Origin: a virus
Direction: 5' to 3' (one strand)
Length of the DNA stretch: 11,023 nt
UHGV virus genome: UHGV-0053823
Shown here one piece after another: positions 1-9,591 of the stretch; within the stretch, counting starts at the first letter, position 1, and every line of letters begins with the position of its first letter. The notes below the pieces were generated by a model. It searched no databases. It had not been told where the DNA came from and saw only the letters and a list, made by a program, of their open reading frames with translations. Position numbers and translations under genes: made by a program.

Positions 1-361
1 CCATATCTAACCGGACATTCAGAGCCATAAGCATTCCTTCAATAATACCTTCCGCTTTATAAAGCCTTTTACCAATAAGCCCATCAGAACATCTATGCTT
101 ACGTGCAAGAGCCATAAATGTCATTCCACCTACGTAATAATCCACCAACAAATCGTGCAAATACTGATTATTCTTGTTTAATCGTGCCATACAACCACAA
201 ATTATCATGGCGTCATCATCAGAACACTGAGGACGTGATTTCACTTTAGTCGGGATTAATCCTTTAAAACCAGCAGCTATCGAGGGCCATGTTACATCTT
301 CATGATTATTTGCTGCCCATGCCCCCCATCGCTCAAGAACCATCTGGATATCACGCGCCAT
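1..361 (-). CDS. Antitermination protein Q (phage 82/DLP12 QuuD-like type), 3' end truncated by window edge
   Basis: Minus-strand frame from ATG at 361..359 is open to position 1 (about 120 codons, no stop). Translation begins [37 protein letters not shown]..., which matches my recollection of E. coli prophage Q antiterminators. The start lies 8 nt upstream of the rusA stop, the usual rusA-Q arrangement. Confidence 0.7.
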
Positions 362-722
362 CGTTACCACCTCTGATTTCGTAAATCTTCACGCCCAGCC
401 GTCCACCTGGCACAGGCTGACCGCGCACAATATTGATTTCATCAAACTGCTCGTCATCAATGAGCACTTCCGCATGCGTCAGCGCATCCAGCGGTGCTTT
501 CAGAATGTTGTCCAGGTCACGGCGGCGCTTATCCGGTGGTTCTGCAATAATTTTTATTGCCAGCCGTCCGGACAGGCTTAATTTCAGCCGCTGCTGGCGA
601 ACAATAAGCGCCACTGCCCGGCGATAACGCTTTCCCGTTTCCGATATAAAGTACGTTCCACCACGACGTCGCCAGTAGGTGTTCACCGTTGGCGGGTAAG
701 GCAAAACAAACTCTATACGCAT
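351..722 (-). CDS. rusA: Holliday junction resolvase RusA
   Basis: 123-aa ORF with ATG start and AAGAGG Shine-Dalgarno 6 nt upstream. Sequence ([14 protein letters not shown]..., [29 protein letters not shown]) is characteristic of the RusA endonuclease family, including the catalytic D-rich core. Confidence 0.85.
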
Positions 723-734
723 CAGTAACCTCTT

Positions 735-1784
735 TTACCCGAGCACGCCGGTTGCAAAGGCGTGATCAAGAAAACGAAAAATTAAATCAACCTGGGAACC
801 ATGCTTTTCTTCGAACGCCAGCGGATCCGCATGAAGTTCGTTGTGATGTTCCCGGCACAACGGTAGCGTGAAAATATCGTGGGCCTTTGTTCCCATCCCT
901 CCCTGACCGTGACCAATCAGGTGATGGGGATCGTCGGCTGGCTGACCACAACACGCACACGGCTGTGTCTTCACCCAGCGCGTATATTTCTCATTTACCC
1001 AACGGCGACGTTTAGGTCGCCTCATGAAAGATTCCGGAGACTCTGGATCAACGGTGATGCTTACCACCGTCTTTTCCTGTGATGGGTTTTGTTGCTGGTG
1101 GGCGTGAGGCAACGGTGCAAGATTTTTTGTGCGCTGTTTCAATATGCTGGTGGCGGTCTGCTCTCCCGGTACGATGTCGCTTTCGCGGTACAAGGAGCAG
1201 ATTTTTTCCGCACGTAACCCCAGAGAACGACGTAATACTGCCTCCGGAAGCGCGTCCGCCACCTGATTGCGGACCGCCCACCAGGATAATTCAGCCAGAG
1301 ATAATTCACGCTCCTGCGTACCGCTTATTGCGTGACCGATGACGTCAATCATCCATGCTGACAGGTTTTGATGAGCAAGTTGCTCAAGTGATTCGGATGT
1401 CTGGTCACGCAGCTGGTTGTCGCAGTGCCAGCACAACACCATTGCGCCGGTACCATAACGGTGAATAACGGTTTCGCTGTGATGATAATCGCCGTGTGGC
1501 CACTGGCAGGATTTAATATGGCGCAACAGCCAGTCAGACAATGCACCAGCACCACCAGCAGCACGAATTACCCGTGCGTTACTGAAAAACGGCAGCAATG
1601 TTTTGTCTTCCACCAGCGGCTGGCGAACGGCAGGGACGACTCCGGATGGCAGGCCGCACATGCTTTTCGGTTCCGGCTCCACCAGCACTCGAGGATTGTG
1701 AAATACCTGCATGGATTCACGACCTGGCTTAAGGACCACCAGCCCGAGTTCCGGTACCAGAACAGGTCGAAGTAATACCCGCAC
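735..1784 (-). CDS. DUF968 family phage protein (YdfU-like) with C-terminal Cys/His HNH-like motif
   Basis: 349-aa ORF ending 13 nt before rusA. C-terminal region CACCGQPADDPHHLIGHGQGGMGTKAHDIFTLPLCREHHNELH resembles the DUF968/YdfU family found beside Q in Qin-type prophages. The start is a non-ATG codon (GTG at 1784), so the true start is uncertain. Confidence 0.6.
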   Translation of the reverse strand: MRVLLRPVLVPELGLVVLKPGRESMQVFHNPRVLVEPEPKSMCGLPSGVVPAVRQPLVEDKTLLPFFSNARVIRAAGGAGALSDWLLRHIKSCQWPHGDYHHSETVIHRYGTGAMVLCWHCDNQLRDQTSESLEQLAHQNLSAWMIDVIGHAISGTQERELSLAELSWWAVRNQVADALPEAVLRRSLGLRAEKICSLYRESDIVPGEQTATSILKQRTKNLAPLPHAHQQQNPSQEKTVVSITVDPESPESFMRRPKRRRWVNEKYTRWVKTQPCACCGQPADDPHHLIGHGQGGMGTKAHDIFTLPLCREHHNELHADPLAFEEKHGSQVDLIFRFLDHAFATGVLG

Positions 1785-1785
1785 G

Positions 1786-2058
1786 TTACCTCCAGATCCG
1801 TTGCTGGAATGTGCGGGACGGACGCGGTGGGCGTTCGGAGTAAGGGAGCCTGACGGAGATTATCCAGTGACGGTAGTCAAGGCTAAGGGCTTTTTTAACC
1901 TCGCATCCGCGCCTACGGTAACACTGAATCAGCCGTTCGGCCTGTTCTTCAGTGCATGGGGGATGCTGATACCAGTCATATTTGAATGCGTGCGAACGCC
2001 GCCCGTGCCTGCTGGCACGAACGGTATCAGAATTGTGTAATTTGGTCTTGTGCGCCAT
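1786..2058 (-). CDS. Hypothetical small basic protein upstream of the DUF968 gene (start uncertain; longest frame reaches 2112 with a TTG start)
   Basis: Open frame 1786..2112 with a non-repetitive, protein-like sequence (HAFKYDWYQHPPCTEEQAERLIQCYRRRGCEVKKALSLDYRHW). First ATG is at 2058; no convincing SD. Stop lies 2 nt before the DUF968 start codon. Confidence 0.25.
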   Translation of the reverse strand: MAHKTKLHNSDTVRASRHGRRSHAFKYDWYQHPPCTEEQAERLIQCYRRRGCEVKKALSLDYRHWIISVRLPYSERPPRPSRTFQQRIWR

Positions 2059-2128
2059 CTGTTTTCTCTGCTGGCGCAGCAGGTGCCAGTTGTTCAGGCT
2101 GGCGTGCGGCAATATTGTCTCTGATTTC

Positions 2129-2158
2129 TGTTGTCGTCAACAGGCAGCGTGCTATCAT
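2129..2158 (+). promoter_or_regulatory. Putative sigma70 promoter of the TA operon with an overlapping palindromic operator
   Basis: TTGTCG (about 2131-2136), 16-nt spacer, TATCAT (about 2153-2158), roughly 36 nt upstream of the antitoxin ATG. Inverted repeat TGTTG-N4-CAACA (about 2129-2142) overlaps the -35, as expected for an autoregulated TA promoter. Confidence 0.3.
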
Positions 2159-2193
2159 CGAATAGTGTTCTATCCTACTCCGTGAGGTTTACC

Positions 2194-2451
2194 ATGCGTA
2201 CAACCCAACAATTCAGCATTACATTAACTAACGAGATGGCTGACATGGTGCGCGCCCGTGTGGCTTCCGGTGCCTATGCTTCAGAAAGCGAGGTCATTCG
2301 TGAAGGGCTTCGCGCACTGAATGAGCGCGATAAAGCAATCGAAGCGTGGTTAACGCATTCAGCCGCCCCCGCTCTTGATTCTATCCGCGAAAATCCAAAC
2401 AACGGACGCTCCATTTCACAGGTTCGCGCCGCGATTCGATCCGGGAAGTAA
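2194..2451 (+). CDS. Type II antitoxin, ribbon-helix-helix ParD-like
   Basis: 85-aa ORF from internal ATG 2194 with GAGG SD 6 nt upstream (the track ORF from 2131 is probably an over-extension). About 85 aa, sitting 5 nt upstream of a ParE/RelE-like toxin gene. The N-terminal region (FSITLTNEMADMVRARVASGAYASESEVIREGLRAL) looks like an RHH DNA-binding fold. Confidence 0.75.
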   Translation: MRTTQQFSITLTNEMADMVRARVASGAYASESEVIREGLRALNERDKAIEAWLTHSAAPALDSIRENPNNGRSISQVRAAIRSGK

Positions 2452-2456
2452 TCTGC

Positions 2457-2756
2457 ATGACATATGAAGTCATCATTACCCCCGAGGCCGAACAGCAGAT
2501 AATAAACCTGCACAGATATATAACGGAGAAAGCAGGAAGCGTCATTGCTGACAATTATGCCAATGCGCTTCTTGATTATCTTGATGGGTTTTCTACATTC
2601 CCGCATCGGGGCAATAAACGCGATGATATTCGCCAGGGAATGCGGGTAACTCACTTCCGCCACAGAACGATTATTGCTTTTGCCGTTGACGGCAATAAAG
2701 TCTTTATCGCGGGTATTTATCATGGTGGGCAAAGCTATGAAGCCGATTTCTTATAA
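2457..2756 (+). CDS. Type II toxin, ParE/RelE superfamily
   Basis: 99-aa ORF starting 5 nt after the antitoxin stop. Size and C-terminal pattern (RVTHFRHRTIIAFAVDGNKVFIAGIYHGGQSYEADF) are typical of ParE/RelE-fold toxins; antitoxin-toxin gene order fits. Confidence 0.75.
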   Translation: MTYEVIITPEAEQQIINLHRYITEKAGSVIADNYANALLDYLDGFSTFPHRGNKRDDIRQGMRVTHFRHRTIIAFAVDGNKVFIAGIYHGGQSYEADFL

Positions 2757-7662: not shown

Positions 7663-8346
7663 TTAACCCCCCCATTGTTCTCCAAATACAAAACCAATTT
7701 CAGCCAGGGCTTCGTCCATTTTTTCGATGAACTCCGGCACCATCTCATCAAAACTCGCCATGTACTTTTCATCCCGTTCGACCACGACATAATGCAGGCC
7801 TTCTCGCTTCATGCGCGGGTCGTAGTTGGCAAAGTACCAGGCGTCCTTGTCTGTAACCCACATGCTGAATTGCACCTGAGCCATATAAGCGGGTTTGATA
7901 GCATCAAAGCCGCCAAGTCTGAACTTCATGAAGTCGCGGGAAGTGAAGGGACATTTCAGTTCAAGACCGTTGCCGTCGCTGCATAAACCGTCGGGAGAGC
8001 AGGCGGTGCGCATGCTTTCGTCACGAAAAATTATGGGCGTTTCCGAGACGGTAATATCCGCGATAAATTCGAAGAGGGCACGGGCATCATCTTCATACTG
8101 CTTTCCCCATGCGAGCGACTTAGCGTTAACTTCCGGTGCCACGCCGGTACAAACTTCAGCCAGCAGGGTGTGGAAGTATGAGATTTTGGTATCAGGCCAT
8201 TTGCTGCCGGAACGTGGCTTTGCTATCACATTGTGAACTTCTGAAGCCGTGATAATGCCGAGCCTGAGTTTGTGCCACCCATCATCGTCCTGGCTGAGTG
8301 TGGTAATATCCACGCCAGTTCGCTGGAGAATAATTTCTGGCGTCAT
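7663..8346 (-). CDS. exo: Lambda-type 5'-3' exonuclease (Red-alpha / Exo)
   Basis: 227-aa ORF that matches lambda Exo, as I recall it, along nearly its whole length ([11 protein letters not shown]..., [56 protein letters not shown]-terminus [10 protein letters not shown]). Start overlaps the annealase stop (ATGA). Confidence 0.9.
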
Positions 8347-9293
8347 GATACGGCCTCGCTGTTATTTTCCGTGGTGGCGTGAACTTTCGCTTCCGCCGTG
8401 GCCTTGTTTCTGGCAGCTTTCTTTTTGACGAAAGCCAGCGCTTTGACAGCTTCTTCCTGATTGAGATTTTCATGTGATGCAATCGTGCGACCGAATATTT
8501 GGGAACACAGGGGGATCAGGTCATCCCATGTTTTGTTAATTTCGCTCATAGCCTGAGTGATCTCATTAATAATCTCATCTGATGCGGGAGTGACGTCACG
8601 CTCAGGGGGGTGATCAGCATTCAGGATGATACCTTCCCCGGCCTGAGTGTTCAGGTAGTCGATAGCCGTATCCAGGCGATCACGACGGGGCCAGTATTTG
8701 CTGGCGCGTTTAACAATGACTTTGCGGGCCATTTCATCGGGGAAACTATCCCACGGACTACTTCCCCCGTTCTGTCCGGCCTTGCTGCACGCTCTGATGG
8801 CTTCGATTGCCTCGTTGCTCATCTCTTCGGTCAGATAGTCGCCTTCGGATGTTTTGACGACACAATAACCGCCAATACGTGCGCCCCTGTCGACAAACGG
8901 GTTGTATTTGTGAGTGGGGGCGCAGTCAATGCCGTTGGACTCGTAAATGTCCTTCTCGTAAACAAGTTTGCATTGCCCCCACTGAATGGCTCCTGTGACC
9001 TGCGCCAGATGCAGAAGTCCCATATAACTGATATCCAGGCATACAGCACCTTTTCGCGGGACCAGATACGCCAGCTTACTGGCGGGGTTCAGGGTTATAC
9101 CAATGGCTGCAACATTGATGATAGCGTTCTGTGCGCTGGCTAGATTTCCCTGTGCTGTTTTAGCCAGAAAGTCATTTTTCTGGAATTGCTGAATTGCAAA
9201 CTGACTTTCCTTCGCCCATGTCAGCGTTGGTTCAGTCAATGCCTCGCAGAAAAATCGCTCCTGCTGTTTAACAAATTCAACGATATCGAACAT
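8343..9293 (-). CDS. ssDNA annealing protein: RecT-family core with a lambda Bet-like C-terminal domain
   Basis: Core motifs match RecT ([41 protein letters not shown] versus RecT SKAGNNGPWVTHWEEMAKKTAIRRLFKYLP). The C-terminal 70 aa ([16 protein letters not shown]...[20 protein letters not shown]...[15 protein letters not shown]) match the lambda Bet C-terminus as I recall it. Start placed at internal ATG 9293 (AGGA upstream, 16 nt after the Gam-like stop); the track's ATG at 9362 would overlap the upstream gene by 53 nt. Confidence 0.85.
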
Positions 9294-9309: not shown

Positions 9310-9591
9310 TCAGAAAGGACAGGGGGAGAATTTCCTCTCCCATTCTTCTTCCGCCCGTGCATAGGCGATCGCTGAGATATAATCGTTGTACGCCTCTTCA
9401 GCTTTATCGCCAGTAAGTGCCAGCTGGGCTTCTTTGGGTAAAAAAAGGCTGCTCATAAGCAATGGTTTATCGGGGAACATGCTGATAAGCTCCAGCGCCC
9501 GATCATCAATCCATTTATCCTTTTCATCCTGAATTTGCTGATTAACCCAGCGACGCTCCTCTATGCGGTCGCAGGTTAGGTATGCGTTCAT
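9310..9591 (-). CDS. Putative Gam-like RecBCD inhibitor
   Basis: 93-aa ORF with AGGAG SD 7 nt upstream. N-terminus MNAYLTCDRIEERRW resembles the start of the short form of lambda Gam (MNAYYIQDRLEAQSW), and it sits directly upstream of the annealase and exo as gam does in lambda. Similarity beyond the N-terminus is weak. Confidence 0.45.
   Translation of the reverse strand: MNAYLTCDRIEERRWVNQQIQDEKDKWIDDRALELISMFPDKPLLMSSLFLPKEAQLALTGDKAEEAYNDYISAIAYARAEEEWERKFSPCPF

Follow-up and report, generated by a model that had tools for sequence, protein, structure and literature searches.

Positions 7,663 to 9,293 of the viral genome stretch UHGV-0053823 (11,023 nt, the whole of which we refer to as the window) carry two adjacent genes that encode a single-strand annealing protein, here called the annealase, and a lambda-type exonuclease (Exo). 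We propose that these very probably constitute a two-gene recombination module of the lambda Red type with a natural hybrid annealase, in which the C-terminal tail of the annealase and its Exo are inherited as one unit while the annealing cores to which they are joined have been swapped. As judged by sequence and predicted fold, the core of the annealase is of the RecT subfamily and its tail is of the Red-beta (lambda Bet) type. The features needed for the argument are listed below with their positions in the window.

8343–9293, minus strand: annealase gene, 316 amino acids (aa) plus stop, a two-domain single-strand annealing protein (open reading frame and its translation)
8646–9293, minus strand: RecT-subfamily annealing core, residues 1–216 (PF03837, TIGR00616, AlphaFold2, Foldseek)
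8682–8708, minus strand: stretch encoding KRASKYWPR, residues ~196–204, to which the crossover in contig L009 maps (switch in DNA identity)
8598–8645, minus strand: flexible linker, residues 217–232 (AlphaFold2 confidence, pLDDT, below 50)
8394–8597, minus strand: Red-beta-type C-terminal three-helix bundle, residues ~233–300, the predicted docking module for Exo and SSB
8346–8393, minus strand: C-terminal extension, residues 301–316, with no counterpart in lambda Bet (past the end of the Bet alignment)
7663–8346, minus strand: lambda-type 5'-3' exonuclease, 227 aa (phmmer, PF09588)

The RecT-type character of the core is evident from profile searches. Residues 31–204 match Pfam RecT PF03837 with 90.2 bits (cutoff 24) and residues 30–202 match TIGR00616 ('rect', the phage RecT family) with 62.3 bits (cutoff 52.65). 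The annealase gives no match at E <= 0.01 to TIGR01913 (bet_lambda), the model for the Bet-type N-terminal domain, to which lambda Bet itself, used as a reference, scores 169.5 bits without matching TIGR00616. When the annealase is compared with lambda Bet by BLASTP, residues 178–300 alone align (E 3e-24) and nothing is found before residue 178; in a forced global alignment the two cores are about 21% identical, with no detectable relation beyond one family motif. Rac RecT aligns with the core at 33% identity across 159 aa (E 4e-17), and in sequence Listeria RecT (7UB2) matches it weakly. The annealase is not a Rac RecT equivalog, as it scores 69 bits with NF007351 (cutoff 296) and its partner is a YqaJ/lambda-type Exo. 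A single-chain AlphaFold2 model built from a 15-sequence alignment (mean pLDDT 79.7) predicts a confident alpha/beta fold for residues 1–216, with block pLDDT mostly 80–93, and the top Foldseek match of this model in the PDB is Listeria RecT (7UB2_E, E 3e-6 over 200 columns), which is a RecT-type fold; the Red-beta 1–177 structure is absent among the 50 best PDB matches listed.

The tail is about 55–56% identical to the C-terminal domain of lambda Red-beta (phmmer to 8TFU, E 9.3e-20), and a profile hidden Markov model (HMM) of the tail matches the annealase at residues 225–297 with 114 bits; Pfam has no model for it. Three helices are predicted, at residues 239–251, 256–267 and 279–314, and the modeled tail superposes on 6M9K_D with a TM-score of 0.92 and a root-mean-square deviation of 0.8 Å at 54% identity (Foldseek), so that both fold and homology are of the Red-beta type. 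The model is of low confidence in the extension that follows (block means 54 and 47 for residues 301–316). A preliminary description of this DNA, made from the letters alone, had reported RecT-family motifs in the central region, and these are borne out by PF03837, TIGR00616 and the fold match to Listeria RecT. It had also placed a match to the Bet C-terminal domain in the last 70 residues and quoted three motifs. All three are present and the match is real, although it spans residues ~230–300 rather than the very end of the protein. The separate alignments to RecT and to Bet that it called for have now been made, with a RecT-type core, a BLASTP match to Bet confined to the region from residue 178 on, and a tail match that holds (E 9e-20). 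Because sequence and predicted fold agree, we describe the protein as a RecT-type body with a Bet-type tail.

The partner gene encodes a close homolog of lambda Exo (phmmer E 1.2e-138 to chains 6M9K_A and 1AVQ) that is 86% identical to it, somewhat short of the near-identity first ascribed to it. It belongs to the YqaJ family (PF09588, 97.9 bits) and falls below the cutoff of the narrower TIGR03033 (55 versus 68 bits). Asp109, Glu129 and Lys131, which we take to be the catalytic residues of lambda Exo, are invariant in our Exo alignment (A4). The two genes are adjacent and co-oriented, as expected of a lambda-Red-type pair, and the TGA of the annealase overlaps the ATG of the exonuclease as ATGA, identical to the bet/exo arrangement in lambda.

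In lambda, the C-terminal domain of Bet contacts Exo (PMC6393309). Helix E of Exo (T90, L91, F94, T95) enters a pocket in the tail formed by L223, I227, F249 and L250, with K253 capping the helix (PMC6393309, PMC11611040), and the complex is lost on mutating L91, F94, L223 or F249 (PMC6393309). The C-terminal peptide of SSB is bound by the Red-beta tail via the same pocket (PMC6393309, PMC11611040; structure 8TFU). The equivalent pocket residues in the window are L262, I266, F288, V289 and K292, corresponding to lambda L223, I227, F249, L250 and K253 respectively, and L91 and F94 are kept in helix E of the window Exo. From these correspondences we infer that the tail docks on the neighboring Exo, that the RecT-type core is in this way loaded onto the nascent 3' strand, and that the tail probably also contacts SSB. 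In this model the N-terminal 216 residues would provide binding of single-stranded DNA, oligomerization and annealing, and the hydrophobic groove of the tail would receive helix E of the adjacent Exo, by homology with 6M9K and 8TFU. The annealase would thereby be placed on the 3' single strand while Exo is producing it, after which the same surface of the tail would bind the C-terminal tail of host SSB. Recombination activity of the window pair is predicted on the same grounds.

The pattern of inheritance is seen most clearly among relatives. Relatives whose cores are 74–78% identical to that of the window have at least four kinds of C-terminus:

Kind 1: tail resembling that of lambda; in E. 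coli and Serratia, among others; YqaJ/lambda-Exo homolog immediately downstream
Kind 2: Yersinia type; YqaJ/lambda-Exo homolog immediately downstream
Kind 3: Morganella/Providencia type; YqaJ/lambda-Exo homolog immediately downstream
Kind 4: unrelated 'type D'; Salmonella, Enterobacter and Cronobacter; next gene Sipho_Gp157, no Exo

Proteins with cores that are 74–90% identical thus have tails that are only 25–37% identical or unrelated. The Serratia and Yersinia proteins share 90% identity in the core, 30% in the tail and 54% in Exo, whereas between the window and lambda the values are 21%, 56% and 86%. The tail HMM gives no match (E 100, filters off) to Rac RecT, whose partner is RecE, or to the type-D relatives of Salmonella and Enterobacter without Exo. 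In Salmonella enterica (L002:1263–2631 and L003; proteins P0088, P0107 and P0110) the core is about 74% identical to that of the window, followed by an unrelated C-terminus of about 90 residues and a Sipho_Gp157-like gene, which suggests, as far as the sequences indicate, that the type-D tail has a different partner.

Starting from Exo, we scanned one genome per species for relatives of lambda Exo and extracted the gene upstream of each, with lambda spike-in contaminants and truncated genes removed. A tail-bearing annealase is found upstream of Exo in all intact loci in which Exo is at least 48% identical to the query, including three with a small inserted gene, and this tail is joined to cores of five groups:

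Core group 1: the RecT type of the window, 69–80% identical
Core group 2: a second RecT subfamily, also TIGR00616, ~50–58% identical
Core group 3: Bet-type (TIGR01913); Enterobacter, Pantoea
Core group 4: ERF (PF04404), tail-bearing and directly upstream of a lambda-type Exo; Erwinia aeris, Photorhabdus, Xenorhabdus
Core group 5: unclassified; Dryocola, Buttiauxella

The tails of the ERF-core proteins are 39–48% identical to those of both the window and lambda. As the ERF-tail protein P0131 is on a contig of 1.8 kb, we used the ERF-tail loci L041, L048 and L050 for context. The three loci with an inserted gene (L035, L037 and L038, from Citrobacter and Dryocola) were at one stage candidates for loci without a tail-bearing annealase. 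They were rejected as such, since in each a small gene of 68–97 aa (L035:2798–3004, L037:2706–2999, L038:1366–1578) separates the annealase from Exo, so that the usual ATGA coupling is broken.

We compared core, tail and Exo identities across 36 annealase–Exo pairs (630 comparisons). Identity in the tail rises and falls with that in Exo (Spearman 0.86; Mantel r 0.86, p 2e-4). The relation of tail to core is much weaker (Spearman 0.22; Mantel r 0.31, p 2e-4), and Exo and core identities are essentially unrelated (Spearman 0.05; Mantel r 0.09, p 0.14). There are three Exo/tail lineages, each paired with 2–4 core types and with an interface signature that does not change with the core:

Lambda-like lineage: tail pocket L / I / F; Exo helix E L91, T95
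Morganella-like lineage: tail pocket F / K / M; Exo helix E T91, Y95
Yersinia-like lineage: tail pocket A or Y / L or M / S; Exo helix E L91, E95

The tail pocket and helix E of Exo therefore vary jointly by lineage, and do so identically on different cores; F94 of Exo does not vary, and at tail position 253 all 36 pairs have K or R.

One E. coli contig, L009, makes the route of exchange visible. From upstream of the annealase to about codon 197 (near L009:4590) it is about 98% identical in DNA to the Salmonella type-D locus L002, and past this point, across the tail and Exo and further on, it is 93–97% identical to the window. The proteins P0010 and P0088 show no differences as far as KRASKYWP. 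The crossover falls in the most conserved stretch of DNA, at the end of the core and hence at the core/tail boundary. The switch in identity indicates that the tail moves with Exo. We propose that the conserved end of the core serves as a crossover site, and that the tail–Exo unit has recombined repeatedly with Red-beta-type cores, cores of two RecT subfamilies, ERF cores and unclassified cores. The suggestion in the preliminary description that an Exo-docking tail has been kept while the core was replaced, by modular evolution, is thus supported by the identities among relatives, the correlations over 36 pairs, the ERF cores and L009.

It is also conceivable that there was no swap, and that the annealase descends vertically from a tail-bearing ancestor of RecT and Red-beta, with a core that diverged much faster than a tail constrained by Exo. 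Lambda Bet and the window core both match PF03837, BLASTP reaches a common GPW...M..K motif at residues 178–200, and all RecT-type relatives that adjoin a lambda-type Exo bear the tail, from which it follows that the association is old. We nevertheless consider descent of this kind improbable. It does not account for Serratia and Yersinia cores that are 90% identical while their tails differ, for an unrelated tail on the same core where Exo is absent, for ERF cores that belong to a different Pfam family and yet have tails like those of the window and lambda, or for the lack of correlation between Exo and core; moreover L009 is a demonstrable recombinant, so that for the family as a whole this explanation is already contradicted. 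A recent exchange between RecT and lambda Bet is likewise rejected, as the DNA identity of the window to lambda is about 65–70% in the tail and about 85–95% in exo. The combination of a RecT core with a Bet tail is old and is common in Enterobacterales prophages. That the hybrid is an artefact, arising from a misassembled contig or from chance or compositional similarity of the tail, we regard as refuted, since the gene recurs at >=90% nucleotide identity in many complete E. coli genomes and phage records, the exact protein is on 81 contigs (see below), and a tail match of E 9e-20 at 55% identity is accompanied by superposition of the fold at 0.8 Å.

A different explanation is that the tail serves to contact host SSB, or some other host component, rather than Exo, and that its co-variation with Exo reflects only their common phage lineage and host. 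The SSB C-terminal peptide is indeed taken up by the Red-beta tail in the same pocket (8TFU; PMC6393309), the position of K253 is basic in every pair as noted above, and actinobacterial RecT and Gp3-like proteins bear tail-like repeats in loci where no adjacent YqaJ gene was seen. However, the pocket residues and those of Exo helix E change jointly by lineage although the hosts are all Enterobacterales, and RecT relatives without Exo in the same hosts are without the tail. SSB C-tails are near-identical among Enterobacterales. As Exo docking and SSB binding are not exclusive in lambda, we think it unlikely that SSB contact replaces Exo docking as the function of the tail.

Several points weigh against inheritance of tail and Exo as a unit with exchanged cores, or limit how far it can be taken. 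There are close relatives among the 36 pairs, so that independent events are fewer than the correlations suggest, for which the Mantel test corrects only in part; because the pairs are non-independent the correlations describe a pattern and not a count of events. RecT and Red-beta cores are distantly homologous members of one Pfam family, and for these two core types taken alone unequal rates of divergence would strictly still be admissible. At the periphery of the interface the window differs from lambda in the tail (R229G, Q252K, E256R) and in Exo (T90A, T95I), so that cross-binding to lambda Exo cannot be taken for granted. Finally, the actinobacterial loci with tail-like repeats have no YqaJ neighbor in the stretches seen, and Exo docking may therefore not be the only or the ancestral role of the tail.

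The wider occurrence of the tail was explored by searching its profile against 1.84 billion cluster representatives (50% clustering), which gave 54 matches, ERF proteins among them. As many families are represented at this level of clustering by a tail-less member, the search shows new types of core and not their abundances; a word-indexed search with the 92-aa tail returned seven short fragments and no full-length proteins, and was unusable for a census. Actinobacterial RecT, ERF and Gp3-like (PF18897) proteins have two tandem tail-like copies (L077, L078 and L079; P0155, P0162, P0168, P0174 and P0175), and the repeat region has sub-threshold matches to Mu GemA (PF06252). In another locus (L080:3001–5072) the gene for P0150, a protein with an unclassified core and the tail, is immediately followed by genes for a 273-aa YqaJ exonuclease and SSB. 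By tblastn, the tail is also found at 41–52% identity in the 'RecT' genes of phi80 (JX871397.1:28672–28845), of the Klebsiella phages RothC and ST512-KPC3phi13.1, and of several Klebsiella/Enterobacter phages. A tentative suggestion, which we regard as possible rather than probable, is that the tail is a portable adaptor that alone sets the specificity of exonuclease–annealase pairing, with docking to SSB or the replisome as its ancestral role and Exo docking as a later specialization. If so, grafting an Exo-matched tail onto any core (RecT, Bet, ERF or other) would suffice for a working pair for recombination of double-stranded DNA (dsDNA).

Exonuclease–annealase pairs are partner-specific, and to our knowledge the structural basis of this specificity is defined for lambda only. 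The occurrence of the same tail on RecT, ERF and other cores beside lambda-type Exo, together with co-variation at the interface, amounts to a natural experiment on partner specificity, and suggests a design rule for recombineering in which annealase and exonuclease are re-paired by changing the tail and not the core. The individual gene is ordinary; of more interest is the rule that the tail goes with Exo while the cores vary. In a 2023 review, whether RecT-type annealases use a similar C-terminal domain is given as unknown (PMC11611040), and a 2026 paper mentions, in a general way, helical bundles at the C-termini of RecT proteins. We found no description in the literature of a natural protein with a RecT or ERF core and a Bet-type tail, although our coverage was incomplete and one may exist.

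The module can be compared with several known systems. It resembles lambda Red (6M9K, 8TFU) in gene order, in the ATGA overlap, in Exo (86%) and in a tail of the same three-helix fold (~55%), in which interface residues L223, I227, F249 and K253 of the tail and L91 and F94 of Exo are conserved, and the place of gam is taken in the window by a small open reading frame (ORF) whose N-terminus is GamS-like. It differs in that the core is not Bet-type and is longer (216 versus ~180 residues), and in its 16-residue C-terminal extension. Rac RecT (of RecE/RecT) and RecT of Listeria phage A118 (7UB2) have cores of the same subfamily, TIGR00616; Rac RecT, however, is partnered by RecE and has no Bet-like tail, whereas the window protein is partnered by a lambda-type Exo. 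The C-terminus of LiRecT has about 26 residues (PMC11611040). The Photorhabdus pair Plu-beta/Plu-alpha (Plu2935/Plu2936) consists of a single-strand annealing protein and an exonuclease 70% identical to Red-alpha, and supports dsDNA recombineering in E. coli (PMC4381043); diverged members of this class of module are therefore active. Plu2935 is 29% identical to Red-beta over 224 aa (PMC4381043) and, judged from this reported identity, appears to have a Bet-type core, unlike the RecT-type core of the window.

The same gene pair, in the same early-left region, is present in phages ArgO145, VT2phi_272, PA2 and P13374 and in prophages of Shiga toxin-producing E. coli, with about 93% nucleotide identity (best 95.7%); in these records from Shiga toxin (Stx) phages the annealase is annotated as RecT or recombinase with its hybrid make-up unannotated, and the window allele is about 7% divergent. 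Among 5426 complete E. coli genomes, 148 have the gene at >=90% nucleotide identity, as do 62 phage records, that of the O104:H4 outbreak phage P13374 included; the two genes of the pair are annotated as 'RecT family recombinase' and 'lambda exonuclease family protein'. The exact annealase protein, on 81 E. coli contigs, is named 'RecT family recombinase', and 'Predicted DNA recombination protein Bet' is the name given to another member of its 90% cluster. Public databases label such proteins 'RecT' only, and the hybrid tail goes without a Pfam model.

Matches at 86% identity in unrelated genera (L013–L024) were excluded from the comparison of relatives as contamination with lambda DNA. Bet-exo DNA of lambda, with a Bet core 100% identical to that of lambda, occurs in assemblies labelled Shewanella, Pseudomonas, Bradyrhizobium, Oceanobacillus, Kitasatospora and others, in some cases on contigs of about 48.5 kb, and is most likely spike-in contamination.

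By its sequence relationships, the window comes from a lambdoid (Stx-phage-like) E. coli prophage, of which it is the early-left region; some 60–66% of the window can be aligned with ArgO145, VT2phi_272, PA2 and many Stx-converting phages, at about 93% identity. The genes that accompany the module are as follows.

Minus strand, first in the listed minus-strand order: Rha-family gene
Minus strand, between the Rha-family gene and the 93-aa ORF: several small ORFs
9310–9591, minus strand: 93-aa ORF where lambda has gam, a possible, weakly indicated Gam-like protein
Minus strand, after the exonuclease gene: accessory genes including DUF2303, PAPS-reductase-like, Ead/Ea22 and DUF551

The translation of the annealase begins MFDIV at 9293, with AGGA 9 nt upstream, and the preceding gene ends at 9310. 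A longer reading frame extending to 9362 was rejected, since homologs begin at the MFDIV/MSNIV position. The first 18 residues of the 93-aa ORF, MNAYLTCDRIEERRWVNQ, are similar to the N-terminus of lambda GamS (BLASTP in a single comparison, E 8e-4), and a Pfam scan of this ORF gave no match; on this similarity it may be a short Gam-like inhibitor of RecBCD. In locus L035 the annealase gene likewise follows a similar ORF (MNAYLTYDLIEDRGW...).

A pair encoding a ParD antitoxin and a ParE toxin (window 2131–2756, plus strand; Pfam) lies on the opposite strand, with the DUF551 gene on one side and the left-hand genes on the other. The left-hand part of the window (1–2110), with RusA (351–722) and a DUF968/HNH-like gene (735–1784), lies outside the part common to the Stx-phage relatives. 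As matches to these relatives begin at 2111, there is a mosaic joint near this position, and these nin-region-type genes occupy the place where the relatives would continue toward the left end.
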